Shown here one piece after another: positions 1,899 to 64,000 of a stretch of 64,000 nucleotides of DNA. Source of the DNA: Mobula hypostoma (taxonomy: Eukaryota); contig NC_086097.1 of the NCBI RefSeq assembly GCF_963921235.1, positions 148,616,001 to 148,680,000 of the forward strand, read 5' to 3'. Position 1 is the stretch's first letter; every line of letters starts with the position of its first letter. The position numbers and the translations under genes were made by a program. Under the pieces are notes generated by a model. That model did no database searches and was not told the DNA's origin. It saw nothing but the letters and a program-made list of their open reading frames with translations.

Positions 1899-4470
1899 CC
1901 TCTCATCATCTTATACACCTCTATCAGGTTACCTCTCATCCTCTGTCGCTCCAAGGAGAAAAGGCCAAGTTCACTCAACCTATTCTCATAAGGCATGCTC
2001 CCCAATCCAGGCAACATCCTTGTAAATCTCCTCTGCACCTTTTCTATGGTTTCCACATCCTTCCTGTAGCGAGGTGACCAGAACTGAGCACAGTACTCCA
2101 AGCGGGGTCTGACCAGGGTCCTATATAGCTGCAACATTACCTCTCAGCTCCTAAGCTCAATCCCACGATGAAGGCCAATACACCATACGCCTTCTTAACC
2201 ACAGAGTCAACCTGCGCAGCTGCTTTGAGTGTCCTATGGACTCGGACCCCAAGATCCCTCTGATCCTCTACACTGCCAAGAGTCTTACCATTAATACTAT
2301 ATTCTGTCATCATATTTGACCTACCAAAATGAACCACCTCACACTTATCTGGGTTGAACTCCTTCTGCCACTTCTCAGCCCAGTTTTGCATCCTATCAGT
2401 GTTCCGCTGTAAAATCTGTCAGCCCTCCACACTATCCACAACACCTCTAATCTTTGTGTCATCAGCAAACTTACTAATCTATCCCTCCACTTCCTCATCC
2501 AGGTCATTTATAAAAATCACGAAGAGTAAGGGTCCCAGAACAGATTCCTGAGGCACACCACTGGTCACCGACCTCCATGCAGAATATGACTCATCTACAA
2601 CCACTCTTTGCCTTCTGTGGGCAAGCCAGATCTGGATCCACAAAGCAACGTCCCCTTGGATCCCATGCCTCCTTACTTTCTCAATAAGCCTTGCATGGGG
2701 TACCTTATCAAATGCCTTGCTGAAATCTATATACACTACATCTACTGCTCTTCCTTCATCAATGTGTTTAGTCACATCCTCAAAAAATTCAATCAGGCTC
2801 GTTAAGGCATGACCTGCCTTTGACAAAGCCATGCTGACTATTCCTAATCATATTATTCCTCTCCAAATGTTCATAAATCCTGCCTCTCAGGATCTTCTCC
2901 ATCAACTTACCAACCACTGAGCTAAGACTCACCGGTCTATAATTTCCTCGGCTATCTCTACTCCCTTTCTTGAATAAAGGAACAACATCTGCAACCCTCC
3001 AATCCTCTGGAACCTCTCCAGTCCCCATTGATGATGCAAAGATCATCGCCAGAGGCTCAGTAATCTCCTCCCTCGCCTCCCACAGTAGCCTGGGGTACAT
3101 CTCATCCGGTCCCGGTGACTTATCCAACTTGATACTTTCCAAAAGCTCTAGCACATCCTCTTTCTTAATATCTACATTCTCAAGCTTTTCAGTCTGCTGC
3201 AAATCATCACTACAATCACCAAGATCCTTTTCCATAGCGAATACTGAAGTAAAGTATTCATTAAGTACCTCTGTTATTTCCTCCGGTTCCATACACACTT
3301 TCCCTCTGTCACACTTGATAGGTTCTATTCTTTGACATCTTATCCTCTTGCTCTTCACATACTTGTAGAATGCCTTGGGGTTTTCTTTAATCTTGCCCGC
3401 CAAGCCCTTTTCATGGCCCCTTCTGGCTCTCCTAATTTCCTTCTTAAGCTCCTTCCTATTAGCCTTATAATCTTCTAGATCTCTAACATTACCTAGCTCG
3501 CTGAACCTTTTGTAAGCTTTTCTTTTCTTCTTGACTAGATTTATTACAGCCTTTGTACACCACGGTTCCTGTACCCTACCATAACTTCCCTGTCTCATTG
3601 GAATGTACCTATGCAGAACTCCACATAAACATCCACTGAACATTTGACACATTTCTTCCGTACTTTTCCCTGAGAACATCTGTTTCCAATCTAAGCTTCC
3701 AATATCCTGCCTGATAGCCTCATAATTCCCCTTACTCCAACTAAACACTTTCCTAACTTGTCTTTTCCTATATCTCTCCAATGCTGTTGTAAAGGAGATA
3801 GAATTATGATCACTATCTCCAAAATGCTCTCCCACTAAGAGATCTGACACCTGACCAGGTTCATTTCCCAATACCAAATCAAGTACAGCCTCTCCTCTTG
3901 TTGGCTTATCTACATATTGTGTCAAGAAACCTTCCTGAACACACCTAACAAACTCCACCCCATCTAAACCCCTTGCTCTAGGGAGATGATAATCGATATT
4001 TGGGAAATTAAAATCTCCCATCACGACAACTCTGTTATTATTACACCTTTCCAGGATCTGTTTCCCTATCTGCTCCTCAATATCTCTGTTACTATTGGGC
4101 GGCCTATAAAAAACACCCAGTAAAGTTATTGATCCCTTCCTATTCCTAACCTCCACCCACAGAGACTCCGTTGACAATCCCTCCATGACAATAAAAGAGG
4201 ACTACGTGTCTTCATAATCTAATGACGTTCATCTTTTCTGCAGCTGTGACACTATCTCTGATCAACAGGGCCACGCCCCCACCTCTTTTGCCTCCCTCCC
4301 TGTCCTTTCTGAAACATCTAAAACCCAGCACTTGAAGTAACCATTCCTCTCCCTGAGCTATCCAAGTCTCTGTAATGGCCACCACATCATATCTCCAAGT
4401 ACTGATCCACGCTTTAAGCTCATCCACTTTGGACACAACACACCTTGAGTTAAATTAGACACATCTCAAA
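1899..4470 (-). pseudogene. CR1 ORF2 (APE endonuclease plus reverse transcriptase), disrupted by frameshifts and a 32-bp insertion
   Basis: [62 protein letters not shown] motifs across successive frames. Confidence 0.92.
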
Positions 4471-7873: not shown

Positions 7874-7934
7874 GAACACACATACCCAGTCCTTATCAAG
7901 GAATCAGAAGTGGAAAGGGTAGGCAGTTTCTATT

Positions 7935-10186
7935 TTCAAGCAGTTTGAGAAGGAGAAACTAAATTCCAATGTGTCAGTATTTCAGTGGAATAAAGGAAAT
8001 TACAATGGCATGAGAGGGGAACTAGCTAAGGTTGACTTGAAAGGGACACTAGCAGGAAGGACAGCAGATCAGCAATGGCTAGAGTTTCTGCAAAAAATGA
8101 GGGAAGTACAAGACAGATATATTCCAAATAAGAAGAAATTCTCAAAGGGAAGAAGGATACTACCGTGGTTGACAAGTGAAGACAGAGCCAAAGTAAAAGC
8201 AAAACAAAGGGCATACAAGACAGCCAAAGCTAGTGGCAAGATAGAGGATTGGAAAGCTTTTAAAAACTTGCAGAAGGAAACTAAGAAGGTCATTAGGAAG
8301 GAAAAGATGGATTATGAAAGGAAGCTGGCAACAAATATCAAAGAAGATACTGAAAGCTTTTTTAAGCATATAAAGGGTAAAAGAGAGTTGAGGGTAGATA
8401 TAGTACCAATAGAAAATGACGCTGGAGATATTGTAATGGGAGATGCAGAGAAGTCAGAGGAACTGAATGCATATTTTGCATCAGTCTTCACAGTGGAAGA
8501 TGTCTACAGTATGCTGGACACTCAAGAGTGTCAGGGAAGTGAAGTACGTGCAGTGAAAATTACGACTGAGAAGGTGCTCAGGAAGCTTAATGGTCCGAGG
8601 GTGGATAAATTTCCTGGAGCTGATGGAATGCACCCTCAGGTTCTGAAGGGAGTAGCTGGAGAGATTGCGGAGGCATTAGCAATGATCTTTCAAGAATCAA
8701 TAGATTCTGGCATTGTACTGGATGACTGGAAAATTGCAAATGTTACTTCGCTATTTAAGAAGGGTGGGAGGCAGCGGAAAGGAAACTATAGACCTGTTAG
8801 CCTGACATCAGTGGTTGGAAAGTTGTTGAAATCGATAGGTAGGGATGAGATTATGGAGTACTTTGAGGCACATGACAAGATCGGCCAAAGCCAGCATGGT
8901 TTCCTGAAAGGAAAATCCTGCCTGGCTAACCTACTGCAATTTTTTGAAAAAAATCACAAGCAGAGTAGACAAAGGAGATGCAGTAGATGTGGTGTACTTG
9001 GATTTTCAGAAGGCCTTTGACAAGGTGCCGCACAGGAGGCTGTTTAGCAAGATAAAAGCCCATGGAATTACTGGGAAGTTACTAGCATGGGTGGAGCATT
9101 GGTTGATCAGCAGAAAGCAAAGAGTGGGAATAAAGGGATCCTATTCTGGCTGGCTGCTGGTTACCAGTGGAGTTCCACAGGGGTCAGTGTTGGGACTGCT
9201 GCTTTTTACCATGTAGGTCAATGATTTGGACTATGAGATTAATGGATTTGTGACTAAATTTGCTGAAGATACAAAGATAGGTGGAGGATCAGGTAGTGTT
9301 GAGGAAACAGAGAGCCTGCAGAGAGACTTAGATAGTTTAAGGGAATGGGCAAAGAAGTGACAAATGAAATACTATGTTGGAAAGTGTATGGTTATGCACT
9401 TCGGTGGAAGAAATAAATAGGCAGACTATTATTTAGATGGAAAGAGAATTCAAAATGCAGAGACGAAAAGTCCTTGGAAGTCCTTGTGCAGGATACCCTA
9501 AAGGTTAACTTCCAGGTTGAGTCGGTTGTGAAGAAGGCGAATGCAATGTTGGCATTCATTTCTGGAGGTATAGAATATAAGAGCAGGGATGTGATGTTGA
9601 GGCTCTATAAGGCACTTGTGAGACCACACTTCGAGTATTGTGTGCAGTTTTGGGCTCCTTATTTTAGAAGGGATATACTGATATTTGAAAGGGTTCAGAG
9701 AAGATTGATGAGAATGATTCCAGGAATGAAAGGGTTTCCATATGAGGAACGTCTGGCAGCTCTTGGGCTGTATTCCCTTGAGTTCAGGTGAATGAGGGGG
9801 GATCTCATAGAAACATTCTGAATGTTAAAAGGCCTGAACAAATTAGATATGGTAAAGTTATTTCCCATGGTAGGGGCATTTAGGACGAAAGGGCACAACT
9901 TCAAGATTGAAGGATGTCCATTTAGAACAGAGATGCGGAGAAATTACATTAGTCAGAGCGTGGTATATCTGTGGAATATGTTTCCATGAGCGGCTGTGGA
10001 GGCCAAGTCACTGGGTGCATTTAAGGCAGAGATAGATAGGTTCTTGATTAGCCAGGGCACCAAAGGGTATGGGGAGAAGGCAGGGATGACTGAAAGAATT
10101 GGATCAGCCATGAATGAATGGTGGAGCAGACTCAATGGGATGAGTGGCCTACTTTCTGCTCCTATATCTTATGGTCTTATGGTCTT
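7935..10186 (+). mobile_element. 5'-truncated CR1 LINE (RT region plus 3'UTR)
   Basis: ORFs 7971-9020, 8944-9216 and 9474-9791 carry CR1 RT motifs; ends in a (TATGGTCT)n tail. Confidence 0.92.
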
Positions 10187-11860: not shown

Positions 11861-12801
11861 TTATGAAACACCTTTTCTGCTATCATATGAAATGTGCTCT
11901 ATGTGCCATGTGCTGTGACTGTTGGTACTGTGTTTTGCACCTTGGCCCCAGGGGAACACTGCTTCATTGGGGTGTGTTTTTGTGTATGGTTAAATGACAA
12001 TTAAACTCAAACTTGAATTTGAATCTTCATTCTTATCCTATTTACTGAAGAACGTAAAAATCTGAAACAAGGAAGTAAATGCTCAAAGCACCAACTTTTT
12101 ATGATGTAGTAAAATATGTATTTCATTGGACTATAATCAACAAAAAGGTGATAAGAAGCCAGTCATTCAGTGATGGAATGTGAGAAGAGAATAAAATGTG
12201 CAGTAGCCAGCGTTTATTGTCCATCCTAAGAGGCTCTTGAGAAGATGCTGGTGAGCCTTGCTCTTGGTGCATTGCATTCCCCATAATGAATACATTTGCA
12301 CAATTCAGTGAAACCAAGGAAAGGATTGCAAGATATGCTCACAAATTTGAAATGACTACATATGCTCAAGCTAGAGTATTTGGAGATAATTTTGTTCTTA
12401 TGCACCTTCTCCCCTTGTCCTTCTATTGGATTTAACAGACTATTAAATAAAGCTCAGGTCCTGTTATAAATACCACACTTCTGTTAGAACTGTCACGACA
12501 ATTGGACACAATGTAGCCAGGAAGGATACTGAATGGCTCTGGCTCAGAAAATAATTGATGTGATCACATCAGTATGTTGATTGACTGACCGTGGGGTTGC
12601 TCTTTGATCTCCCAACTTACCAGTTCATAAAACCTAGCACTTGGTCATTTGATACCATTCCCACTAAACTCTGCCCACTCTTCAATCCTTTGAAACGTCC
12701 TTCCACATTTCAAAGAATTTATAATAAAAGAATGAAAAGAAGAACAGAATAAGAATGATAATTTATGGAATTTTGCATGATCCAGGAACTGGGAAATGAA
12801 T

Positions 12802-13025
12802 AGCAACACACATCAAAGTTGCTGATGAACACAGCAGGTCAGGCAGCATCTGTAGGAAGAGGTACAGATGACGTTTCAGGCCGAAACCCTTCGTTAATCC
12901 TAACCTTACTATTAAACCCGCCGATAAGGGGGTTGCTGTTGTAGTCTGGCGTATTCTACTGCTGCGTTCACCAGCAACTTTGATGTGTGTTGCTTGAATT
13001 TCCAGCATCTGCAGAATTCCTGTTG
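12802..13025 (+). mobile_element. Miniature Penelope-like element: inverted pLTR end, 60-bp ORF remnant, pLTR end
   Basis: Ends match the termini of 23353-25807; middle encodes NLTIKPADKGVAVVVWR (PLE DKG motif); TSD ACTGGGAAAYGAAT at 12788-12801 and 13026-13039. Confidence 0.85.
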
Positions 13026-13059
13026 ACTGGGAAACGAATGAAGCATTTTCTGAAACTGA

Positions 13060-23250: not shown

Positions 23251-23413
23251 GGTTTTGTTACTAGGTTATGTTACTGAACTGATCTTGCAAAGAAAAAAAT
23301 CAAAACTTTGTTTATCAACTGGAAGACTTAAATTTAGTTAACTTAATTAAATCAACATACATCAAAGTTGCTGGTGAACGCAGCAGGCCAAGCAGCATCT
23401 ATAGGAAGAGGCG

Positions 23414-23451
23414 CAGTCGACGTTTCAGGCCGAGACCCTTCGTCAGGACTA
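23414..23451 (-). ncRNA. Minimal type I hammerhead ribozyme motif (inverted arm copy)
   Basis: Exact reverse complement of 25675-25712. Confidence 0.85.
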
Positions 23452-24033
23452 ACTGAAGGAAGAGTGAGTAAGGGATTTGAAAACTGGAGGGGGAGGGGGA
23501 GATGCAAAATGATAGGAGAAGACAGGAGGGGGAGGGATAGAGCCGAGAGCTGGACAGGTGATAGGCAAAAGGGGATACGAGAGGATCATGGGACAGGAGG
23601 TCCGGGAAGAAAGACGGGGGGGGTGACCCAGAGGATGGGCAAGAGGTATATTCAGAGGGACAGAGGGAGAAAAAGGAGAGTGAGAGAAAGAATGTGTGCA
23701 TAAAAATGAGTAACAGATGGGGTACGAGGGGGAGGTGGGGCCTAGCGGAAGTTAGAGAAGTCGATGTTCATGCCATCAGGTTGGAGGCTACCCAGACGGA
23801 ATATAAGGTGTTGTTCCTCCAACCTGAGTGTGGCTTCATCTTTACAGTAGAGGAGGCCGTGGATAGACATGTCAGAATGGGAATGGGATGTGGAATTAAA
23901 ATGTGTGGCCACTGGGAGATCCTGCTTTCTCTGGCGGACAGAGCGTAGATGTTCAGCAAAGCGGTCTCCCAGTATGCGTCGGGTCTCACCAATATATAAA
24001 AGGCCACATCGGGAGCACCGGACGCAGTATATC

Positions 24034-25382
24034 TTCTTATATACTTCCATCCCCCATCAGGAAGGTCTCAAAGCTCTACGCTTCTTTTTGGATTCCAGAC
24101 CTAATCAGTTCCCCTCTACCACCACTCTGCTCCGTCTAGCGGAATTAGTCCTTACTCTTAATAATTTCTCCTTTTGCTCCTCCCATTTCCTCCAAACTAA
24201 AGGTGTAGCTATGGGCACCCGTATGGGTCCTAGCTATGCCTGCCTTTTTGTTGGGTTTGTGGAACAATCTATGTTCCGTGCCTATTCTGGTATCTGTCCC
24301 CCACTTTTCCTTCGCTATATCGACGACTGCATTGGCGCTGCTTCCTGCACGCATGCAGAACTCGTTGACTTTATTAACTTTGCCTCCAACTTTCACCCTG
24401 CCCTCAAGTTTACCTGGTCCATTTCCGACACCTCCCTCCCCTTTCTAGATCTTTCTGTCTCTGTCTCTGGAGACAGCTTATCCACTGATGTCTACTATAA
24501 GCCTACTGACTCTCACAGCTATCTGGACTATTCCTCTTCTCACCCTGTCTCTTGCAAAAATGCCATCCCCTTCTCGCAATTCCTCCGTCTCCGCCACATC
24601 TGCTCTCAGGATGAGGCTTTTCATTCTAGGACGAGGGAGATGTCTTCATTTTTTAAAGAAAGGGGCTTCCCTTCCTCCACTATCAACTCTGCTCTTAAAC
24701 GCATCTCCTCCATTTCACGTACATCTGCTCTCACTCCATCCTCCCACCACCCCACTAGGAATAGGGATCCCCTGGTCCTCACCTACCACCCCACCAGCCT
24801 CCGGGTCCAACATATTATTCTCCGTAACTTCCACCACCTCCAACGGGATCCCACCACTAAGCACATCTTTCCCTCCCCCCCTCTCTCTGCATTCCGCAGG
24901 GATCGCTCCCTACACAACTCCCTTGTCCATTCGTCCCCCCATCCCTCCCCACTGATCTCCCTCCTGGCACTTATCCGTGTAAGCGGAACAAGTGCTATAC
25001 ATGCCCTTACACTTCCTCCCTTACCACCATTCAGGGCCCCAAACAGTCCTTCCAGGTGAGGCATCACTTCACCTGTGAGTCGACTGGGGTGATATACTGT
25101 GTCCGGTGCTCCCGATGTGGCCTTTTATATATTGGTGAGACCCGACGCATACTGGGAGACCGCTTTGCTGAACATCTACGCTCTGTCCGCCAGAGAAAGC
25201 AGGATCTCCCAGTGGCCACACATTTTAATTCCACATCCCATTCCCATTCTGACATGTCTATCCACGGCCTCCTCTACTGTAAAGATGAAGCCACACTCAG
25301 GTTGGAGGAACAACACCTTATATTCCGTCTGGGTAGCCTCCAACCTGATGGCATGAACATCGACTTCTCTAACTTCCGCTAG
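24034..25382 (+). pseudogene. PLE polyprotein fragment: RT, thumb, Cys linker, GIY-YIG endonuclease; 5'-truncated with one frameshift near 24935-24945
   Basis: LYTSIPH, QTKGVAMG, RYIDD, LPFLDL, YYKPT, SSHP; then YPCKRNKCYTC and VIYCVRCSRCGLLYIGETRR...RFAEH...VATHF...EQHLIFRL...GMN to TAG. Confidence 0.92.
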
Positions 25383-25674
25383 GCCCCACCTCCCCCTCGT
25401 ACCCCATCTCTTACTCATTTTTATGCACACATTCTTTCTCTCACTCTCCTTTTTCTCCCTCTGTCCCTCTGAATATACCTCTTGCCCATCCTCTGGGTCA
25501 CACCCCCCCCGTCTTTCTTCCCGGACCTCCTGTCCCATGATCCTCTCGTATCCCCTTTTGCCTATCACCTGTCCAGCTCTCGGCTCTATCCCTCCCCCTC
25601 CTGTCTTCTCCTATCATTTTGCATCTCCCCCTCCCCCTCCAGTTTTCAAATCCCTTACTCACTCTTCCTTCAGT

Positions 25675-25712
25675 TAGTCCTGACGAAGGGTCTCGGCCTG
25701 AAACGTCGACTG
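25675..25712 (+). ncRNA. Minimal type I hammerhead ribozyme motif in the PLE pLTR
   Basis: UAGUC-CUGACGA-AGGgucucggCCU-GAAA-CGUC-GACUG: stem I UAGUC/GACUG, core CUGANGA and GAAA, loopless palindromic stem III ACGU, predicted cleavage after C25707. Confidence 0.85.
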
Positions 25713-26009
25713 CGCCTCTTCCTATAGATGCTGCTTGGCCTGCTGCGTTCACCAGCAACTTTGATGTATGTTGCTTGAATTTCCAGCATCTGCAGAATTC
25801 CTGTTGTTTAACTTAATTAAATGTTAGCATTGTAATGACAAAACTTCAGCTTGTTCCTTAGGAGGTCTGCTATGCTTAGCAGATCTTGTTTATATCTGAA
25901 ACCCAAAATGTACAGTGCAGTTGACATACAAGTGTCCCAAAATGAATATTGAATAATTAATTATATTACAACTATTAAGAATATTAATAATAATATCCAA
26001 TGACCAATC

Positions 26010-26240
26010 CTTCAGGTTGGCGGTGAATCTGTGGAATTCATTGCCATGGACGGTTGTGAAGACAAAATCATTGGGCATAATTAAAGCGGAGGTTGATAGA
26101 TTCTTGTTTAATCAAGGCATCAAAGGTGATGGGGAGAAGAGTGGGATTGAGAGGGATATTAAATTACCCATGATGGAATGGCAGTGCAGACTCAGTAATT
26201 TGAATGGACTGCTTCTGCTCCTATGTCTTATGGTCTTATG
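26010..26240 (+). mobile_element. CR1 3' end
   Basis: VNLWNSLP...KAEVDRFL; cttatggtcttatgg tail. Confidence 0.8.
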
Positions 26241-27127: not shown

Positions 27128-28965
27128 CATAAGATATAGGAAGGGAGTTTGGCAACATGGACCATTGAGTCTGTTCCGCCATTCCATCATGGCTGACTTA
27201 TTAGCCTCTCAACCCCATTCTCCTGTTTTCTTCCTGTAACCTTTGAAGCCCTGACTAACCAAAAATCTATCAACTTCCACTTTAAGTATACTCAATGATT
27301 TGGCCTCCACAGCTGTCCATGGTAGTCAATTCCACAGTTCAACACGCTCTACCTAAAGAAGTTTCTTCTCATCTCTGTTCTAAATAGAAGTCTTTTCTTT
27401 TCTGAGAATGTTCCCCTGGTTGTAGACTCATTCACTGTAGGAAACATCCTCACCACATCCATTCTGTCTAGGCCTTTCAATAGACAATAGGTTTCATTGA
27501 GATCCCCCTCATTCTTCTAAACTCCAGTGAGTACAGGGTCAGAGCCATCAAACACTCCTCATACATTAACTATTCCATCCTCAAAATCATTCTCATGAAC
27601 CTCCTCTGGACCCTCACCAATCCCTGTACATCTTTTCTTAGATAAGGGGTCCAAAACTGCTCTCAATACTCCAAATGTGATCTGACAGTGTCTTATAAAG
27701 CATCAACATCATATCATTGGTCTTATATTCTAGTCCTTTCGAAATGAATGCTAACATTAGATTTGCCTTCCTTACCACTGACTCAAACTGCAAGTTAAAC
27801 TTTTATGGGAATTCTGCACAAGGACTCCCAAGTCCCTTTGTATCTCTGATTTTTGCCTTTTTCTCTGTTTAGAAAATAGTCTGCACCTTTATTCCTTCCA
27901 CTAAAGTGCATGACCATACCCTTCCATAAACTATACTCATCTGCCACTTTTTTGCCCATTCTCCCAGTCTGCCTAAGTCCTTTTGCAGAGTCCCTGCTTC
28001 CTAAACATTGCCTGTCCCTCCACCAATCTTTGTATCATCTGAAAACTTGGCCACAAAGTCATCAATTCTATTATCCAAATTGTTGACATATATCGTGAAA
28101 AGAAGCGTTCCCAAAATTGATCTCTATGGAACACCACTTGTCATGTGCAGCCAAACCAGAATAGGCCCCCTTTTTATGATTCTGCCTCCTGTCGGTCAGT
28201 CAATCTTCTATCCATGTTAGTCCCTTTCCTGTAATACCATGGGCTCATATCTTGTGAAGCAGCCTCATATGTGGCACCTTGTCAAAAGCCTTCTGAAAAT
28301 CTAAATGAACAAAACCCATTGACTCTCCTTTGTCTATCCTGCCTGTCATTTCCTCAAATAAATTTCAATAGATTTGTCAGGCAAGATTTCTCGTTAAGGA
28401 AACCAGTAGACTTTGGCCTACTTTATCATGTGCCTCCAAGTACCCCACAACTTCATCCTTAATAATGGACTCCAAAATTTTCCCAACCACTGAAGTCAGG
28501 CAAACAGGCCTATAATTTCCCTTCTTCTATCTCCCTCTCTTCTTAAACAGTGGAGTGGCAATTGTAATTTTCCAGTCCTCTGGAACCATTCGAGAATCTA
28601 GTGATTCTTGAAAGATCACTGCTAATGTCTCCACAATCTCTTCAGCTACCTCTTTCAGAACCCTGGGATGTAGTCCATCTGCCCCAGGTGATGTATCTGC
28701 CTCAGGTGACATATCTGTCTCAGGTGACTTATCTACATCAGGTGACATATCTACCTCAGGTGACTTATCCACCCCAGGTGACATATCTACCTCAGGTGAT
28801 TTATCTACCTCAGGTGATGTATCTACCTCAGGTGACTTATGTACCTTCAGTCCTTACAGCTTCCTAAGCACCTTCTCGTTATTAATAGCAACTACACTCA
28901 CTTTTCCCCCTGACATCTTCAAATTTCTGGCTTACTGCTGGTGTCTTCCACAGTGAAGACCATTG
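27128..28965 (-). mobile_element. 5'-truncated CR1 LINE
   Basis: ccataagatatagg tail; DGLHPRVLKEVAEEIVE...VPEDWK...PLFKK in ORF 28527-28784. Confidence 0.88.
28685..28846. repeat. Minisatellite, 9 x 18 bp (CAGGTGACWTATCTACCT) inside CR1 ORF2
   Basis: Nine consecutive CAGGTGA-initiated 18-mers; minus strand reads VDKSPE/VDMSPD/TDMSPE. Confidence 0.92.
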
Positions 28966-35559: not shown

Positions 35560-38158
35560 ACGTCTATGACAAATGTCTATGTACTCTGAGGAGATACAAT
35601 GGAGGGGTCAGATACTGAGTCCATTTGGTTAGAACTCAGGAATAGGAAGGGTACAATCACACTGATGGGCTTGTACTGTGGACCCCCCCCCAATAGCCAC
35701 TGGGACACTGACAAACAGATATGCAACCAGATTAAGGAAATGTGTAAAAATAATAGGGTTGTTGCCCTGGGAGATTTCAACTTCCCTAATATAAACTGGG
35801 ATTTTCTTAGTGCAGGAGGTTTAGATGGCACAGAATTTGTGAAGTGTATCCAGGAAGGGTTCTTAAATCAATAAGTGGACAGTCCAATGATAGGAGGGGC
35901 TGTCCTGGCCCTCGTGTTGGATAATGAGCCTGGTCAGGTGACAGATCTTTCAGTCAGTGAACAGTTAGGGAACAGTGACCACAACTCCTTAATTTTTAAG
36001 ATAGCTTTAGATAAGTATAGGTTTGGTCCTTCTGGAAGAGTTTTAAATTGGAGTAGGGCAAATTATGGATGCATTAGGCAGGAACTAAGAAGCATTAATT
36101 GGAAGCACTATTTTTCTGGCGAGTCCACATCAGACATGTGGAGGGTGCTTAAAGATCAATTATACAGAGTGCTGGAAAGGTACATTCTTGTTCAAAGAAA
36201 GGACAGGTATGGAAAGATAAGAGAACCTTGGATGTACAGCAATATGATGAATTTAGTCAAGATGAAAAAGGAAAAATATGTAAAGCTTCAGGTCAAACCT
36301 ATAAAGCACAGGAGGACTACAAAGAAGCCAGAAAAGAACTAAAGAAGGGAATGAAGAAAGCCAGGAGGGGCATGACAAGTCCTTGGCAAGTAAGATCAAA
36401 GTGAATCCCAAGGCATTCTACACATACATCAAGAGTAAAAGGATAACTTGGGAGAGGGTGGTGGCACACAAGGATAAATGGGGAAACATTTGCTTGGATA
36501 CAGAGAATGTGGGTGAGGTACTTAATGAGTACTTTGCTTCAGTACTTACCAAGGAAAAGGATATGGAAGACCAGGAGATCAGTACCTAGTGTATAAATAT
36601 GGTAGGGCATTTAGTGGTCAAGCAGGAGGAAGTGTTGGGCCTCCTAATGAGTATTAAGGTGGATAAGTCCCCAAGGCCTGATGTGATTTACCCCAGCTTA
36701 TTGAAGGTGGCAAGAGACGAGATTGCTGGGCCCCTGACCAGTATCTCTATATCCACTTTAGCCACAAGTGAGTAGCTAATATTGTACCTCTGTTTAAGAA
36801 TGAAACAAGGGAAAATCCTGGGAACTATAGACTGGTGAGTCTCATCAGTTGTAGGGAAATTCCTGAAGAAAATCCTTATGGACCGGTGACCTAATTAAGG
36901 AGGGCAAACATGGCTTTGCGGGTGGCAGGTCGTGCCTTACAAAATTGCCTGAGTTTTTTGACAAGGTGACAGGAGAGATTGACGAGAGTAGGGCAGTGGA
37001 TGTTGTCAACATGGATTTTAGTGAGGCATTTGACAAAGTCCCTCATGGGAAGCTAATCCAGAAGGTTAATGTTCATGGGATCTGGGGCAAATTGGCTGTT
37101 TGGATACAGAACTGGCTTGCACATAGAAGACAGAGGGTAGCTGTTGAAGGGACTTATTTGAGCCGGTGGTCTGTAATTAGTGGAGTTCCACACAGATCTG
37201 TGCTGTGCTCTCTGCTGTGTAATGCACATAAATGACCTGGATGAAAATATAAATGGATGGGTTAGTAAAATTGCTGATGATACCAAGACTGGTGGAGTTG
37301 TGGATATTGCAGAAGACTGACAAAGAATACAGCACAAAATAGATCAGTTGCTGATCTGGACTGAGAAGTGCAGATGGACTTTAACCTAGATAAATGCGAG
37401 GCAAATGCACAGAGACAGTGCACTTTTAAGGGCAAGGTCCTTAACAGTGTTGCTGAGCAGAGAGATCTTGGGATCCAAGTTCACAGCTCCTTGAACGTAG
37501 CCACAATAAAGCAGTTAAGAAGGTTTTTGGAATGCTTGCTTTTATTAGCCAGAGCACTGAGTTCAAAAGTCAGGAGGTTATGTTGCAACTTTATAAAACA
37601 GGTTAAGCCACATCTGGAATATTGCATACAGTTCTGGTCACCCCACTATAGGAAGGATGTTGAAGCTTTGGAGAGGCTGCAGAAGAGGTTCACCAGGATA
37701 CTGCCTGGTTTAGAGGGCATGTGTTATCATGAACATTTGGATAAACTTGAGTTATTTCCTCTAGAGTGTCGGAGGCTGAGGGGAAATCTGATAGAGGTTT
37801 ACTAGATTATGAGACGCATAGATAGAGTGGACAGAGAATATCTGTTTCCCAGAGTTGAATTGTCTAATACCAGAGGACATGCATTGAAGGTGAGAGGAAG
37901 AAGGTTCAAGGGAGATGTGAGGGATAAGTTTTTCACTCATAGAGTCATGGACGTCTGGAACGTACTACCTGGTATGGTGGTGGAGGCAAACATATTAGAG
38001 GCACATGGATGTAAGGAAGATGGAGGGATATGGACATGGTGTAGGTAGGAGGGATTTGTGTTTGGGTGTTTTGATTTGCTTTTTAGCTGGTTCAGCACAA
38101 CACTGAGCACTAAAACGTCTGTTCCTGAGCTGTAATCTTCTATGTTCTGTATTCTATG
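35560..38158 (+). mobile_element. Decayed CR1 ORF2 (APE-RT) with 3'UTR
   Basis: ESIWLELRNRKG, GDFNFP, SDHN, NPKAFY, DFSEAFDKVPH, PHLEYCIQFWSPHY, TRGHALK; tctatgttct tail. Confidence 0.92.
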
Positions 38159-47257: not shown

Positions 47258-47370
47258 TTGTTCAAAGATCTCGTAAATTGTGACTCTGCTTTTGGCCCAG
47301 TTTGCTTTGAGATAAAATGCAGGGTATTTGTGCCAAAAGCAGAGTCACAATTTACGAGATCCTTGAACAA
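47258..47370. repeat. 39-bp inverted repeat with one mismatch and a 35-nt spacer
   Basis: ttgttcaaagatctcgtaaattgtgactctgcttttggc / gccaaaagcagagtcacaatttacgagatccttgaacaa. Confidence 0.9.
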
Positions 47371-51469: not shown

Positions 51470-53865
51470 AGACCAGAAGACATAAGAGCAGAATTAAGCC
51501 ATTCAGTCTGCTCTGCCATTCCATCATGGATGCCACTCAACTCCATATACCTGCTTTCTTGCCATATCCTTTGATACCGACCAGGAAATGATCAACTTCT
51601 GCCATAAATATATGTACAGACTTGGCCTCCACCACAATCTGTGGCAGAGCACTCCACAGATTCGCTACTCTCTGGCTAAAAATGTCCTCCTTACCTCTGT
51701 TGTAAAGGACTGCCCCTCAATTTTGAGGCTGTGCCTTCTAGTTCTGGATAACCCCACCGTAGGAAATATCCTCTCCACATCCACCCAATCTAGTCATTTC
51801 AACATTCGGTAGATTTCAATGAGATTGGCCCACATTCTTCTAAATTCCAGTGAGTACAGTCCCAAAGCTGCCAAATGCTCCTTGTATGTTAACCTGTTCA
51901 TTCCCAAAAATCATCCCCGTGAACCTCCTCTAGACTCCCTCCATTGACAACACATCCTGTCTCAAATATGTGCCCAAAATGGTTGACAATACTCCAAGTG
52001 CAACCTGATTCATGTCTTATAAAAGCTCAACATTATCTCCTTGCCTTTATATTCTACTCCCATTGAAATAAATGCAAAGATTGCATTTGCCTTCCTTACC
52101 ACAGACTCAACCTGTAAATTAACCTTCTGGGAGTCTTGCACGAGGTCTCCCAAGACCCTTTGCACCTCTAATGTTTGAACCTTCTCCCCATTTAGATAAT
52201 AGTCCACAGTGTTGTTCCTTTTACCAAGATGCATTATCATACATTTCCTAACACTGCATTCCATCTTTCACTTTTTGTCTATTCTTCCAAATTATCGCAT
52301 CGCTTTCTTAGCAATACCTACCCCTACACTAATCTTTGCATCATCCGCAAACTTGTCCACAAAGCCATCATTCCATTATTTACACAGAATGCTGGGGGAA
52401 CACAGCAGGCTAGGCAGCATCTGGGAAGAGAGTACAGTCGAGCAACACACACAAAATGCTGGAGGAAAACAACAGGCCAGGCAACATCTAGGAAAAGAGT
52501 ACAGTCGACCTTAAAGAACCGGCAATTGAAAGTGTGGATCCGGAGGAGGATAAAGAAGCATACCATTCCATTATAGGCGGCGGAGAGAGAATTCCAGATT
52601 TGTGGAAGTGACTGGGAAAGGGACACCATGTACCTCTTCATGGTGGAAAGCATGGCACGTGGAACGTGGTGGGAGAAGAAGGGGGAGAAGCAGTCAATTG
52701 AATGTGAGTTCCTGGGGTCCTCAGAGGGTTCAAATTGAGCAGCTTGAAAACAAATCTGGAAGCAATGTGGCATTAGCTGGCATGAAGACATGTTTCCAGA
52801 AAGGATACATGGTTGTAGGAGTGGGTCTGGGTAAGCACGTGGTCAAAGAGTCAGAGAGCAGCGGGGATCATAGAGAGGGAGCAGTGAGGGGGGTTTCACT
52901 GAACTCCCGTTCAAGGGATGATTTAAACTTCAGGGTAGGCATCCCCGGAAGGGGCTTCACAGTGTCATAATCTGATCACAAACAAGAGAAAATCTGCAGT
53001 TGCTGGAAAGCTTGCAGCGTTGACTGTACTCTTCCTAGATGCTGCCTGGCCTGCTGAGTTTCTCCAGCATTTCATGTGTGTTGCTCAGATTTCCAGCATC
53101 TGCAGATTTTCTCTTGATTGTAGTTCCATTATCTAAATCATTGACAACAATTTGAAAAGCAGCAGTCCCAATACTAACCCCTGAGGAACACCACTAATCA
53201 CTGGCAGCCAACCAGAAAAGGCCCCCTTTATTCCTACTCCCTGCCTCCTGCCTGTCAGCTATTCTGCTATCCATGCCAGTATCTTTCCAGTAACGTCATA
53301 GGATTTTATCTTGTTAAGCAGCCTCATGTGTGGCACCTTATCAAACGCGTTCTGAAAATCCAAGTAAATGACATCCACTGCCTTTTCTTTGTCCACCCTG
53401 CTTGTTACTTCTTCGAAGAATTCTAGCAGATTTGTCAAGTGAGGTTTCCCTTTACATAAACCATGTTCTTTGACTTATTTTATCATTAGTCTCCAAGTAC
53501 CTCGAAACCTCATCCTTAGTAATAGACTCAAACATTTTCCCAATCACTGAGGTTAGGCTAACTGGCCTATAATTTCCTTTCTTTTGCCTTCCTCCCTTCT
53601 TAAAGAGTGGAGTGACATTTGCAATCTTCTAGTCCTCTGGGACCACGCCAGAATCAAGTGATTCTTAAAAGATCATGACCAATGCATCCGTTATCTCTTC
53701 AGCAACCTCTCTCAGGACTCTGGGATGTAGTCCATCTGGCCCAGGTGACTTAACCACCTCAAGACTTCTGAGTGTGCTGAGCACTTTTTCCATTGTAATA
53801 GCAATGGCACTCACTCTTGCTCCCTGACACTCACAGACCTCTGGCACACTGCTAGTGTCTTTCAC
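51470..53865 (-). mobile_element. 5'-truncated CR1 interrupted by a PLE
   Basis: KSPGPDGLHPRVLREVAEEI, KCMIMHLGKRN; gaccagaagacataag tail. Confidence 0.88.
52383..53123 (-). mobile_element. Rearranged PLE insertion: two tandem pLTR ends, a 5'UTR/N-terminal ORF segment, and an inverted pLTR end
   Basis: Two units ending agagtacagtcg(ac); 52511-52975 abuts the pLTR tail; TSD TTCCATTATYTA at 52371-52382 and 53124-53135. Confidence 0.8.
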
Positions 53866-54060: not shown

Positions 54061-55255
54061 AGAACATAGAACATAGAATGGTACAGCACAGTACAGGCCC
54101 TTTCGCCCACAATGTTGTGCCGACCCTCAAACCCTGCCTCCCATATAAGCCCCCACCTTAAATTCCCCCATATACCTGTCTAGTAGTCTCTTAAACTTCA
54201 CCAGTGTATCTGACTCCACCACTGACTCAGGCAGTGCATTCCACGCATCAACCACTCTCTGAGTAAAAAGACCTTCCTCTAATATCCCCCTTGAACTTCC
54301 CACCCCTTACCTTAAAGCCATATCCTCTTGTATTGAGCAGCGGTGCCCTGGGGAAGAGGTGCTGGCTATCCACTCTATCTATTCCTCTTATTATCTTGTA
54401 CACCTCTAACATGTCTCCTCTCATCCTCCTCTCCAAAGAGTAAAGCCCTAGCTCCCTTAATCTCTGATCATAATGCATACTCTCTAAACCAGGCAGCATC
54501 CCGGTAAATCTCCTCTGTACCCTTTCCAATGCTTCCACATCCTTCCTATAGTGAGGTGACCAGAACTGGACACAGTACTCCAAGTGTGGCCTAACCAGAG
54601 TTTTCTAGAGCTGCATCATTACATTGTGACTCTTAAACTCTATCCCTCGACTTATGAAAGCTAACACACCATAAGCTTTCTTAACTACCCTATCCACCTG
54701 TGAGGCAACTTTCAGAGATCTGTGGACATGTACCCCGAGATCCCTCTGCTCCTCCACACTACCAAGTATCCTGCCATTTACTTTGTACTCTGCCTTAGAG
54801 TTTGTCCATCCAAAGTGTACCACCTCACACTTCTCCAGGTTGAACTCCATCTGCCACTTCTCAGCCCACTCCTGCATCCTATCAATGTCTCTCTGCAATC
54901 TTTGACAATCCTCTACACTATCTACAACACCACCAACCTTTGTGTCGTCTGCAAACTTGCCAACCCACCCTTCTACCCCAACATCCAGGTCGTTAATAAA
55001 AATCACGAAAAGTAGAGGTCCCAGAACAGATCCTTGTGGGACACCACTAGTCACAATCCTCCAATCTGAATGTAATCCCTCCACCACCACCCTCTGCCTT
55101 CTGCAGGCAAGCCAATTCTGAATCCACCTGGCCAAACTTCCCTGGATCCCATGCCTTCTAACTTTCTGAATAAGCCTACCGTGTGGAAGCTTGTCAAATG
55201 CCTTACTAAAATCCATATAGATCACATCCACTGCACTACCCTCATCTAAATGCCT
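54061..55255 (-). mobile_element. Young 5'-truncated CR1
   Basis: ORF 54605-55231 with [25 protein letters not shown]; (AGAACAT)n tail. Confidence 0.93.
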
Positions 55256-55430
55256 TGTTGTGAAAAATTATACTTGTTCTTGAAGACTATTATCAAATGT
55301 CTAGGCCTGTATAAGTATAAGCATTGAGTATAAAACGAAAGAGGTTACACTAAATCTTTGCATCCATCTAAGTATAATAACCAATTTGGACACTACTTTT
55401 GCGAAAAGGCATGAAGATCTTGGAGAATAC

Positions 55431-56064
55431 ATCTGAGATGTCCTCCTTCTTCTAAGAACAGGGGTTCCCTCCCTCGACTATTGATGATGCCTCACCCACA
55501 TCTCCTCTCTTTCCTGAACATCTGCGCTCACCCCATCTTCCCACCAGAAGCAGAACTTCCCGGTGCCCAAACATTTTAATTCCCATTCCCATTCCAATAT
55601 GTTGGTCTTGTGCCAAGGTGAGGTCACGCTCTGGGTGGAGGAGCAACAGCTTACATTCTGTCTAAGTAGCCTCCAATCTGGTGGCATGAATATTGATTTC
55701 TACTTCAGGTAAAAAAAAAATTCCCTCTCCCTCCCCCCTTTCACTATACTCAACTTTGGCCTTGTACCTCTTCTCACCTGCCTATCGCTCCCTCCCTGGG
55801 TCTCCTCTCCTTCCCTTTCTCCTATCGTCCACTCTCCTCTCCTAACAGATTTCTTCTTCTCCAGCCGTTTACCTTTCCCACCCACTTGGTTTCACTTATT
55901 ACCTTCCAGTTAGTCATCCCATCCCCCCGACCATTTTATTTTGCTCTTTCCCCTGTCCTTTTCAGTCCTGAAGAAGGGTCTTGAGCCAAAACGTCGACTG
56001 TTTATTCATTTCCATAGATGCTGCATGATCTGTTGAATTCCTCCAGCATGTTGTGCATGTTGCT
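55431..56064 (+). mobile_element. PLE 3' fragment (GIY-YIG end plus pLTR) inserted in an old CR1 relic (~55270-56400)
   Basis: Homologous to 24640-24750 and 25195-25773; TSD TTGGAGAATAC at 55420-55430 and 56065-56075; hammerhead motif 55963-56000 with GAAA mutated to AAAA. Confidence 0.85.
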
Positions 56065-56414
56065 TTGGAGAATACTGTAGATAATTAGAAGAAACTTCCC
56101 AGGGTTGAAGATTACTCTTACATGGCTAGAGCAAAGAAACTGAAACTCTTCACATCAGCGAAGGCTGAGAAAAGATTTGACAGAAGAATTCAAATTCTTG
56201 ACTGATTTAGATAAAATAAAGAAGAATTGTTTTCATTGGCAAGGAGATGTTAACCAGAGGAGATAAATTGATAGGCAAAGGAATCAGAGGCATGTGAGGA
56301 TAAGCTTCCTTTGTAATTTCAAATACATTGATTGTTAGAAGGAGGGGAACAGACTTAATAATGTCTTTAAAAGGGGGAAATAGATCTATGCCTGAATGAG
56401 AATAAATGCAGGGA

Positions 56415-57355
56415 AAACATCTCCGCAGGATCCCACCACCAAGCACATCATTCCCTCACCCCTCCCAACGTTTCACTTTCTGCAGGGATCGCTCTCTACA
56501 CTACTACGTTGTCCATTCATTCCTCCCTACAGATCCCCTTCCTGGAACTTATCCTTGCAAGTGGAATAAGTGCTCCTATGCCTCCTCGTCACTGCCATTC
56601 AGGGCCCCAAACAGTCCTTCCACACTTCACCTCTGATTCTTTTGGGGTCATTTACTGCACCTGGTGTTCCTGGTGTGGCCTCCTGTATATTCTTGAGAAC
56701 CAACATGGATTAGAAGACCTCTTTGCTGAGCATCTAGGCTCCGTTCACCAGAAATGCGGGATCTCATTTTAATTCTACTTCCCATTCCTATTCTGACATG
56801 TCAGTCCTTTGTCTCCTCTACTGCAGTAATGAGGCCATTCTCGGGTTGGCCTTATATTCTGGGTAGCCTCCAACCTGATAGCATGAACATTGATTTCTTG
56901 AACTTCTGATAATTGCACCCCCCTTCACCATTCCCCATTCCCCATTCCTATTTTCTGCTCTCACTTTATCTCCTTACCTGCCCATCACCTCCCTCTGGTG
57001 CTCCTCCCACCCCCCCTACCTTTCTTCCATGGCTTTCTGTCTTCTCCTATCAGATTCTCCCTTCTCCAGCCCGTTATCTTTTCACCAATTGACATCCGAG
57101 CTCTTTCCTTCACCCCTCTCCTCTCTCAGTTTCACCTATCACCTACTACCTTATACTTCTTCCTTCCCCCACCCCCCCCCAACCACCTTCTTATCTTGAT
57201 TTCTCATCTTTTTCCCTCAGTCTTAATGAAGGATTTCGGCCCAAAATGTTGACTGGGCCCTTTTCAATAGTTGCAGCTGGCCTGCTAAGCTCATCCAGCA
57301 TTTTGTGTGTGTTGCTTGGATTTGCAGCATCTTCAGATTTTCCCCTTGCTTGTGT
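56415..57355 (+). mobile_element. Decayed PLE 3' fragment (linker, GIY-YIG, pLTR)
   Basis: GTYPCKWNKC, GVIYCTWCSWCGLLYILE...FAEHL; decayed hammerhead motif ~57218-57255. Confidence 0.85.
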
Positions 57356-59171: not shown

Positions 59172-60875
59172 ATAAGACCATAAGACCATAAAATATTGGA
59201 CCAGAATTAGGCCACTTGGCCCATCGAGTCTGCTCCAGCATTTCATCATGATTGATCCAGTTTTCTTTCACTCCCAATCTCCTTCTTTCTCCCCCAAATC
59301 CCTTCATACCCTGACCAAACAAGAATCTATCTACCGCTGCCTTAAATATACATAAAGACTTGGCTTCCACAATTGCCTGTAGCAAAGAATTCACTATTCT
59401 CTGGCTAAAGAAACTCCTCCTCACCTCCATTCTAAAAGGATACTTCTCTATTCTGAGGCTCTGTCCTCTGGTATTAGATACTTCCACCATAGGAAACATC
59501 TTCCCTATATCCATCCTATCATGGCCTTTCACCATTTGATAGATTGCAATTAGGTCACCCCTCATTCTTCTGAATCCCAGAGAACACAGACCCAGAGCCA
59601 TCAAACACTCTTCAAATTCTCGACAAGCCGTTCAATCCTGGAATCATTTTCCTAACCCTCCTTTGAACTTTCTCCAGTCTCAGCACATCCTTTCTAAGAT
59701 AAGGAGCCCAAAACTGCTCACAATACTCCAGGTGAGGCCTCACCTGTGCTTTATAAACTCTCAACTTCACATACCATACTTGGTATGGAAGTTGTCCTGT
59801 CCAAGACCAAAAGAAGCTGCAGAAGATCATGAACACGGCGCAGCATATCACAGAAACCAATCTTCCGTCCATGGACTCACTTTATACTGCATGCTGTCGG
59901 AGCAGTGCTGCCAGGATAATCAAGGACACGACCCACCCAGCCAACACATTTTTCGTCCCTCTTCCCTCCAGGAGAAGGTTCAGGAGCTTGAATACTCATA
60001 CGGACAGATTTGGGAACAGCTTCTTTCCAACCGTGATAAGACTGCTGAATGGATCCTGACCCGATCTGGGCCGTACCCTCCAAATATCCGGACCTGCCTC
60101 TCGGGTTTTTTTGCACTACGTTACTTCCCCTTTTCTATTTTCAATTTATGATTTATAATTTACATTTTTAATATTTACTAATTTTAACTATTTTTAATAA
60201 TTTTTAATATTTAATAATTGTAATCCAGGGAGTGTGAAGCGCAGAATCAAATATCGCTGTGATGATTGTAAGTTCTAGTACCAATTGTTTGGCGACAATA
60301 AAGTATATAAAGTATAAAGTATACTTGCTTTTATATTTTGATCCTCTTGAAACGAATGCTAACATCACATTTTTCTTCCTCACCACAGATTCAACCTGAA
60401 AATGAACCTTTAGGAAATCCTGCAAAAGGATTTCCAATTCCCTTTGCACATCATATTTTTGTATTTTCTTTCCATTTAGAAAATAGCCAATCCTTTCATT
60501 TCTTTTACCAAAGTGCATTCCCATATACTTTCGACACTGTATTCCATCTGCCACTTCTTTGCCCATTTTCCTAATCTGCCTAAGTCCTTCTGTAGCCTTG
60601 CTATTTCTTCAAAACTACCTTCCACTCTACCTACCTTCCTATCATCTGCAAACTTTGCAACAAAGCCATCAATTCTATCATCCAAATCATTGTCATATAA
60701 TGTAAAAATGATTGGTCTCAGCACAGACCCCTGTGGAACACCACTGGTCATGAACAGCCAACCAGATAAGTCTCCCTTTATTTCCACTTTTTGCCTCCTG
60801 CCAATCAGCCACTACTTTATACATGCTAAGATCTTTCCTGTATTGTCGTATGCTTAGAGCTTGTTAAGAAGCATC
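59172..60875 (-). mobile_element. CR1 3' fragment interrupted by Rex1
   Basis: [27 protein letters not shown]; taagaccataagaccata tail. Confidence 0.88.
59772..60320 (+). mobile_element. Rex1/Babar 3' fragment nested in CR1
   Basis: IIKDTTHPANTFFVPLPSRRRFRSL; gacaataaagtatataaagtataaagt tail. Confidence 0.88.
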
Positions 60876-63230: not shown

Positions 63231-64000
63231 GAGATGCAGTGGATGTTGTATATTTGGATTTTCAGAAGGCGTTTAACAAGGTGCCACACATGAGGCTACT
63301 TAACAAGATAAGAGCCCATGGAATTACGGGAAAGTTACATACGTGGATAGAGTGTTGGCTGATTGGCAGGAAACAGAGAGTGGGAATAAAGGGATCCTAT
63401 TCTGGTTGGCTGCCGGTTACCAGTGGTGTTCCACAGGGATCAGTGTTGGGGCCGCTTCTTTTTACATTGTACATCAACGATCTGGATTATGGAATAGATG
63501 GCTTTGTGGCTAAGTTTGCTGACGATACGAAGATAGGTGGAGGGGCCGGTAGTGCTGAGGAAACGGAGAGTCTGCAGAGAGACTTGGATAGATTGGAAGA
63601 ATGGGCAGAGAAGTGGCAAATGAAGTACAATGTTGGAAAGTGTATGGTTATGCACTTTGGCAGAAATAATAAACGGGCAGACTATTATTTAAATGGGGAA
63701 AGAATTCAAAGTTCGGAGATGCAACGGGACTTGGGAGTCCTCGTACAGGATTCTCTTAAAGTTAACCTCCAGGTTGAGTCAGTAGTGAAGAAGGCGAATG
63801 CAATGTTGGCATTCATTTCTAGAGGAATAGAGTATAGGAGCAGGGATGTGATGTTGAGGCTCTATAAGGCGCTGGTGAGACTTCACTTGGAGTACTGTGG
63901 GCAGTTTTGGTCTCCTTATTTAAGAAAGGATGTGCTGACGTTGGAGAGGGTACAGAGTAGATTCACGAGAATGATTCCGGTAATGAGAGGGTTAACATAT
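63231..64000 (+). mobile_element. CR1 RT fragment running off the window end
   Basis: VDVVYLDFQKAFNKVPH, GVPQGSVLGP, KFADDTK, LEYCGQFWSPY. Confidence 0.92.

Follow-up and report, generated by a model that had tools for sequence, protein, structure and literature searches.

The 64,000-nucleotide stretch of Mobula hypostoma DNA analysed here (the window) very probably carries a recent, non-coding insertion of a Neptune-type Penelope-like element, with a standard minimal hammerhead and an origin in two primings of DNA synthesis, in which the ribozyme is likely inert at its present locus. Judged by its letters, the motif is a putative minimal type I hammerhead located in the pseudo-LTR of the element. 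The features of the insertion are given in Table 1.

Table 1. Features of the hammerhead motif and of the insertion that carries it (positions in the window; a dot marks features without strand)
Feature	Position	Strand	Details
Left target-site duplication	23338-23352	.	AT-rich, 13-15 bp; identical 15-mer at 25808-25822
Inverted arm	23353-24033	-	25091-25773 in reverse complement; holds the C-terminal part of the endonuclease, the 3' UTR and the hammerhead; without tail
Second minimal hammerhead copy	23414-23451	-	In inverted arm; exact reverse complement of 25675-25712
Inversion junction	24026-24045	.	7-bp palindrome, 6-nt loop; from fold of 24018-24055
Direct copy	about 24034-25807	+	5'-truncated, frameshifted
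Reverse transcriptase, 5'-truncated	24037-24945	+	Core and thumb; Pfam RVT_1 weak, E 0.03
Frameshift	about 24936-24948	+	After reverse transcriptase
Cys-rich linker C-x4-C-x2-C	24978-25004	+	Between reverse transcriptase and endonuclease; from translation
GIY-YIG endonuclease, CCHH pattern	25086-25382	+	Open to stop; Pfam PF01541, 22.9 bits against cut-off 22.6
3' UTR, part of pseudo-LTR	25383-25674	+	Pyrimidine-rich, 80% C+T
Minimal type I hammerhead (putative)	25675-25712	+	38 nt; letters read and matched to published alignment
Stem I	25675-25679 with 25708-25712	+	5 bp: U.G, A-U, G-C, U-A, C-G
Hammerhead core C3-A9	25680-25686	+	Read from sequence
Stem II	25688-25691 with 25696-25699	+	Closing pair G10.1.U11.1; A25687 unpaired
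Hammerhead core G12-A15.1	25700-25703	+	Read from sequence
Loopless ACGU palindrome	25703-25706	+	
Loopless C15.2/G16.2	25704-25705	+	U16.1 is 25706; C17 is 25707
Predicted cut site	after C25707	+	
Tail, direct copy only	25774-25807	+	34-36 nt extension past inverted-arm end (25773)
Right target-site duplication	25808-25822	.	15 of 15 positions identical to left one

Motif positions follow the hammerhead numbering, which agrees with that of the hammerhead papers cited. The initial annotation had placed a 38-nt motif at 25675-25712 (+) and its exact inverse at 23414-23451 (-), with all core nucleotides and a 5-bp stem I, and reading the letters confirmed all of this. The motif contains CUGANGA, GAAA and UH in the type I order. 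The 15.2/16.2 step is palindromic and lacks a loop 3, of which a tiny one would be allowed (ACGU, 25703-25706), a short helix I of 5 bp closes the motif, and one base, A25687, is unpaired between positions 9 and 10.1. It lies in the pseudo-LTR, 293 nt past the stop codon of the endonuclease and approximately 60 nt before the tail. The earlier assignment to a minimal type I hammerhead in a Penelope-like pseudo-LTR is supported, as is the statement that ACGU, having no loop, needs a second copy to form stem III.

A short stem II had also been described, and it is present, but not in the register that starts at A25687. In the partition function, the register with A25687 unpaired has pair probabilities of 0.87-0.97 (about 0.96), versus 0.02 for A25687-U25699. 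The stem then consists of G.U, G-C, G-C and U.G with the loop CUCG. When nine copies from the window are aligned, G25688 pairs with column 11.1 in seven of the eight that have letters there (4 G.U, 3 G-C), and A25687 does so in four of eight. The closing pair 10.1/11.1 is G.U in the copies at 25675-25712 and 12.9 kb and G-C in three older window copies. These nine relics are decayed: 74% of the cells are paired, a level reached by 40 of 500 shuffles, and for the covariation score the figure is 207 of 500. In this set of nine decayed window relics, the stems show no covariation above shuffle level.

A descriptor made up of the core and a fully paired 5-bp stem I gave two matches in the window, compared with one in 60 simulated windows (64-kb first-order Markov sequences). 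In the motif list of the window, the copies at 25675-25712 and 23414-23451 are the only intact cores, and of the 18 matches that nhmmer found in the window with 25640-25810 as query, both arms included, these two alone have one. The two copies are not independent, since both lie inside one 681-nt inverted duplication; they are the product of one insertion event. Against Rfam, neither the entire window, at E<=1, nor 25600-25820, at E<=10, had a hammerhead match. The canonical Rfam hammerhead models expect a stem III. The folding energy of the motif is unremarkable, with a z of -1.24 and 22 of 200 shuffles that fold equally well. If the motif were a product of chance or of assembly, such a z and the missing Rfam match would fit; that origin is nevertheless extremely improbable in view of the descriptor control, the match to the published consensus, the target duplication, the asymmetry of the tail, the differences between the arms and the contig pieces, which number over 200,000 in each DNA run.

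The insertion at 23338-25822 has a pseudo-LTR, a tail of 30-40 bp and a target duplication. Tails of this length are reported for Penelope-like elements (PMC8557442, PMC11167929), and an inverted 5' copy together with a tail at one end is their typical layout (PMC8557442, PMC3846280). Among up to 2000 randomly drawn pairs of stretches within the window, none shares 13 or more letters and the maximum is 11. The first two T of the left target duplication could, on the right side, be part of the element, hence the range of 13-15 bp. The inverted and direct arms are identical at 679 of 681 positions (2 substitutions), with one 2-nt indel in addition. The element had been called young, and in relative terms this holds, given that near-identity of the arms and the 15 of 15 identical positions in the target duplication. 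The inversion junction we infer to be a microhomology joint; palindromes at inverted junctions have been described in Penelope-like elements (PMC3846280). In one contig of run X5 that spans the right flank, the alignment breaks off precisely at 25808 and leaves 15 letters, the pattern expected of an empty site. The insertion is a recent one and may be missing from organism B. In the contig runs X1, X9 and X15 the right flank has little or no cover, which is uninformative on its own.

[quoted passage not shown] The reverse transcriptase starts just past the catalytic Asp of motif A. We found 210 longer reverse transcriptase homologs, the best named ones coming from Chiloscyllium punctatum with 68-70% identity, which points to a cartilaginous fish as the probable host; in homologs of 806 and 955 residues the alignment begins at residue 361 and 506, respectively, and the N-terminal 350-500 residues are missing from the direct copy. 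No working enzyme can be encoded by the direct copy. A Cys linker is present in 94 of the 94 homologs that show the searched endonuclease motif (among the 120 homologs listed). The pattern C-x(2-5)-C-x2-C defines Neptune and Nematis (PMC8557442), and the linker at 24978-25004 conforms to it and is thus common to Nematis. In vertebrates, Neptune and Poseidon are the only groups reported (bioRxiv 10.64898/2026.07.22.740005). We call the element Neptune-type, an assignment that is made from the Cys linker and the probable host group and not from a tree.

The same arrangement recurs, on a smaller scale, in a second insertion at 12788-13039: a 14-bp duplication with one mismatch, an inverted arm that reaches the equivalent of 25775 and a direct part that reaches 25806. 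It does not contain an intact hammerhead motif. Inverted 5' ends are usual in Penelope insertions, and this second insertion shows the same layout without the motif; the pair of hammerheads on opposite strands is therefore more readily explained as a side effect of the inverted 5' end that such insertions commonly have than as a device for regulation.

We suggest the following course of events. At an AT-rich site, the protein of the element would make nicks 13-15 bp apart in the two strands, and DNA synthesis would be primed twice, from start points approximately 35 nt apart close to the RNA's 3' end. One product would extend to approximately 24034 and the other to 25091, and the two would be joined at a short palindromic microhomology. 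The outcome would be two arms, of which the direct one has the tail and the inverted one lacks it, and each strand would carry one hammerhead. The arms end approximately 35 nt apart in two insertions, which matches the presence of two start sites in the green anole element PAc. For PAc both strands are nicked and extended, and the two start sites define the tail (PMC11167929). Both products cross the predicted cut site intact, so that the sense template, if used, would have been uncut or re-ligated.

The inverted arm could instead stem from fold-back self-priming on an antisense template, from which the sense hammerhead would then be absent. The 7-bp palindrome at the inversion junction fits this, and self-priming on an antisense template is the preferred explanation for such junction palindromes in PMC3846280. 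We regard it as rather unlikely here, since in two independent insertions the arms end at the same pair of points, approximately 35 nt from each other, in agreement with the two starts seen in vitro on sense RNA (PMC11167929), and since the unshared middle, 24034-25090, measures 1 kb and is not a tight hairpin. Five short copies were compared for a start at the cut site as a possible trace of cleavage: one has a joint at approximately 52441 that fits such a start (25706-25708, microhomology being present there), two others either begin slightly upstream, by a few bases, or have their start obscured by an inverted junction, and decay is too advanced in the remaining two.

In the isolated 38-mer, stem I has probabilities of 0.55-0.98. 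In contexts of 71, 209 and 429 nt, stems I and II reach at most 0.02, and the secondary structure is thus not favoured without help. The best fold of the monomer keeps stems I and II, pairs core positions 25682-25685 with 25704-25707 and forms a rod of -11.0 kcal/mol; the monomer is accordingly predicted to be an inactive rod in which the core GACG is paired with CGUC. Dimer energies, which leave out tertiary contacts, are -11.5 kcal/mol for the active type (intermolecular ACGU/ACGU with swapped stem I arms), whereas two rods together reach -22 and the most stable dimer -30.3. Minimal hammerhead monomers do not cut, and dimers cut weakly in vitro (PMC4209133).

The duplex of the sense and antisense 38-mers reaches -80.2 kcal/mol. 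In the fold of the read-through RNA 23340-25825, all 38 motif positions are paired to the antisense arm, on either strand. The arms point outward, and the antisense arm is therefore always transcribed first. It had been proposed that any transcript would contain the sense hammerhead and its antisense, and that cleavage would need an intermolecular dimer or be blocked by the fold-back. An RNA with both arms does lock the motif, but "any transcript" is too wide, as only read-through RNA holds both arms; an RNA initiated within the arms or in the part between them and transcribed outward has the sense motif without an antisense partner. Read-through RNA would bury the motif in a 680-bp duplex with the antisense arm, which comes first on either strand. 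In these models the locus at 23414-25712 is most likely inert as a ribozyme.

A role for the inverted pair at the locus itself has also been considered, in which the fold-back of a read-through RNA would turn the ribozyme off, or the family would be silenced through small RNAs derived from the 680-bp hairpin. The fold-back is energetically overwhelming, and a rotifer is reported to have antisense small RNAs that target Penelope families (PMC3846280). However, inverted 5' ends are a common product of insertion (PMC8557442, PMC3846280), the insertion is of recent date and may be lacking in organism B, and the 64 of 639 stop-free ORFs that were scanned gave no host exon and only retroelement-type matches. 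We consider such a role very unlikely.

Elsewhere than at this locus, two sense copies, from a tandem source transcript or joined by protein, could pair ACGU with ACGU, swap their stem I arms and cut slowly after C25707. By analogy with known systems, any action of the motif would take place in tandem source elements or in a protein complex and would be weak and helped by protein. In the anole PAc, hammerhead cleavage needs protein and is not required for insertion (PMC11167929).

The motif may also be kept for a role that does not involve cutting: it could bind protein, mark a point where reverse transcription stops or switches, or form a 3' splice site that overlaps stem I, as in Penelope of Drosophila virilis, or it may be a passenger. 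Catalytic mutants of the anole element have no effect on insertion in vitro and RNA ends were not detected at the cut site (PMC11167929), Naiad elements thrive without canonical hammerheads (PMC8557442), and by nearest-neighbour terms the active dimer is disfavoured by 10-19 kcal/mol. In addition, a pyrimidine tract and YAG precede the core here and in most of the older window copies. These points are set against a catalytic core that is intact as a whole, a block shared by the family that begins at the edge of stem I, and an anole motif that cuts with protein and responds to a C3/G8 swap (PMC11167929). The splice signal is unspecific, there being four YAG sites in a UTR of 80% pyrimidine, and the AG is explained by stem I pairing. 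All told, a purely non-cutting role is possible and yet doubtful. A 3' splice site overlapping stem I was set aside as unspecific, with four such sites in the UTR, and none of the 15 joints listed is a GT..AG skip that ends at stem I.

A further and quite improbable reading assigns the ribozyme a part in the insertion step. The loopless hammerhead would act as a sensor of two RNAs: a dimeric reverse transcriptase-endonuclease carrying two element RNAs would pair their ACGU palindromes in trans and would also prime both target strands at the two start points, and each monomer would be kept off by its own hairpin between the core and CGUC. It draws on a predicted protein dimer, the protein-dependent cleavage in the anole (PMC11167929), the monomer rod and one ambiguous joint. 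Inverted insertions would then be the genomic print of the complex, and copies that start at G25708, for which 52387-52441 is a candidate, would be prints of cut templates. If true, dimerisation of the ribozyme would be tied to insertion, which would explain why the motif needs a partner.

The window stretch, or part of it, is contained in 20 listed runs from 8 studies, 18 of them with half of the words or more. Four runs were used, all of which consist of contigs: X1 and X5 are DNA runs, and X9 and X15 are RNA runs by guess. The region 24900-26020 is covered by 237,020 (X1), 215,961 (X5), 17,400 (X9) and 8,549 (X15) contig pieces. In X1 and X5, depth adds up to millions over the element and stays under 65 on the flank past 25850, which is not a copy number. 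The family is a young, extremely abundant Neptune-type Penelope-like retrotransposon.

Among the loose ends listed, 468 contigs in X1 and 363 in X5 end at 25676, the 5' edge of stem I, and 374, in X5 only, end at 25712, its 3' edge. The loose ends listed also include 25376-77, the end of the reading frame, and the 3' end of the family at approximately 25809, with 492 (X1) and 419 (X5) contigs and mixed AT-rich flanks. So, on the basis of these contigs, related subfamilies appear to share sequence from the 5' edge of stem I, and some appear to diverge right past its 3' edge. None of the 40 differences listed falls in the motif, 25675-25712, and the adjacent positions 25713 and 25714 vary at 31-96%; all 40 reach at least 42% in some run (16 computed, 24 by eye). 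Depth is high throughout 25660-25811, through the tail, and the differences considered are the 40 listed, so that part of the signal for conservation of the motif may come from an overrepresentation of 3' ends rather than from selection on the ribozyme. Both arms carry letters that are rare among the contigs: at 25150 the other letter accounts for 99% in X1 and X5, and at 25643 for 99% and 90%. Rare letters common to both arms point to one source.

Metazoan minimal hammerheads (min-HHR) in Penelope-like pseudo-LTRs were described by Cervera and De la Pena in 2014 (PMC4209133). The present motif resembles them in being type I, with CUGANGA followed by one unpaired base, a short stem I, GAAA and no loop 3 (PMC4209133); an unpaired base between 9 and 10.1 is named in the same paper as a trait of the group (PMC4209133). 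We counted by hand in the 56 rows of the published alignment (supplement of PMC4209133). The loopless ACGU occurs in 29 of them, 13 with C17 as at 25707, and one of the 29 is Neptune. Opposite-strand hammerhead pairs 100-700 bp apart are described as well, and in Fig. S4A of the same paper the 5' end of a 5'-truncated element bears a second motif on the opposite strand (PMC4209133). The rarity that the initial annotation implied for both features is therefore not supported. The Acropora digitifera Neptune row has the same CUGACGAA, a 4-bp stem II, a 4-nt loop and CGUC (PMC4209133). G10.1-C11.1 is highly conserved in min-HHR but not universal (PMC4209133), and U11.1 of 25675-25712 departs from it, whereas older window copies keep C. 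G10.1.U11.1 closes stem II in 8 of the 56 rows, including the assayed Schistosoma family (PMC4209133), and to judge from these rows the G.U closing pair is an accepted variant. With two wobbles in four pairs, stem II is weak compared with the 7-8 bp of Schistosoma (PMC4209133). An origin of U11.1 by CpG decay of the copy at 25675-25712 was ruled out, as both arms and the independent insertion at 12788-13039 carry it; 25699 is also absent from the 40 differences listed. U11.1 looks like a trait of the subfamily.

Matches to the motif pattern elsewhere were few: six in viral contigs and 73 in prokaryote genomes, none of which was confirmed, and 15 in metagenomes, with one 33-nt blastn match and none that matched the element beyond the motif. 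Cartilaginous fish are absent from the 56 min-HHR rows (PMC4209133). In the literature searched, we found no paper on a Penelope hammerhead family of cartilaginous fish.

The element as a whole is similar to Neptune (PMC8557442, PMC3846280) in its reverse transcriptase, linker and C-terminal GIY-YIG with CCHH, as well as in the 5' truncation, inverted 5' copy, 30-40-bp tail and short target duplication. It differs in that the copy at 24034-25807 is frameshifted and without the N-terminal 350-500 residues, and in that its target is an AT-rich site, not a microsatellite. With Poseidon PAc of the green anole (Frangieh et al. 2024, PMC11167929), it has in common a pseudo-LTR hammerhead, an AT-rich target and two 3' end points that define the tail. 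PAc, however, belongs to the Penelope/Poseidon clade, which is described as lacking the Cys linker (PMC3846280), and its reading frame starts inside the hammerhead (PMC11167929), whereas the frame start is absent from the 24034-25807 copy. Animal non-LTR retrozymes (bioRxiv 10.64898/2026.07.22.740005) likewise carry a type I hammerhead from Penelope pseudo-LTRs and are reported in the one chondrichthyan sampled there. Retrozymes are direct tandem arrays of non-coding units with a complete hammerhead, whereas the locus at 23338-25822 contains reverse transcriptase and endonuclease sequence, its second copy is inverted and both copies flank coding sequence. The kind of motif found here is already published across animals, and the present locus adds to it a probable family of cartilaginous fish. 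Being young and abundant, this family offers test material in which 5' truncations, tandem joints and arm ends could show whether RNAs that have been cut ever serve as templates.

Several further pseudo-LTR copies are found in the window, in addition to the main Penelope-like element with its minimal type I hammerhead (see table). In the direct tandem, the upstream boundary of the tail is where the first piece stops. The second piece starts at the equivalent of positions 25706-25708 of the main element, adjoining the predicted cut site, with the joint blurred by microhomology. The two older 3' ends each carry a hammerhead relic in which the core position G12 is changed to A. Because these ends are only about 70% alike in sequence, they are possibly separate insertions rather than one tandem. 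The small insertion of the main element's subfamily has a partial hammerhead with U11.1, located in its inverted arm, as well as a short N-terminal piece of the reading frame (IKPADKG motif) and a 3' end with a tail.

Repeat features in the window and a hammerhead-like core in a metagenome contig
Feature	Position	Strand	Remark
LINE-type reverse transcriptase or endonuclease frames	673-1023, 2482-4201, 7923-9017, 36867-37232, 54608-55267, 60479-64000		
Small Penelope-like insertion, subfamily of the main element	12788-13039		between 14-bp duplications with 1 mismatch
Two short pseudo-LTR pieces, direct tandem	52387-52514	-	
Two short pseudo-LTR 3' ends arranged head to head	52980-53117		start inside the 3' half of the hammerhead
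Two older Penelope 3' ends, same orientation	55435-57341	+	about 1.25 kb apart
Core similar to the hammerhead	L007 118-145	-	contig from metagenome collection

The core in L007 has a G-C-rich stem II of 5 bp, the ACGU palindrome and an imperfect stem I; it may be another minimal hammerhead or a chance match.

No host exon was found among the window ORFs scanned (64 of the 639 stop-free ORFs). The last LINE-type frame region includes an additional match to ALKBH8_N (61416-63005). A tandem array of 18-nt units, with frames open on both strands (28659-28874), apparently lies inside a LINE-like fragment. The hairpin at 47268-47359, matching Rfam mir-4796 below threshold (score 34 bits, cut-off 90), is probably an inverted repeat.

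In the main hammerhead, a second palindrome, GUCGAC (25705-25710), overlaps ACGU and extends across the predicted cut site; dimers that compete with the ACGU pairing, and joints at microhomology, could form through it. A pyrimidine tract (25651-25677) has two YAG sites, which end within and just 5' of stem I; the tract and YAG sites cannot be told apart from the UTR background. This arrangement resembles that of Penelope from Drosophila virilis, whose intron ends at helix I.
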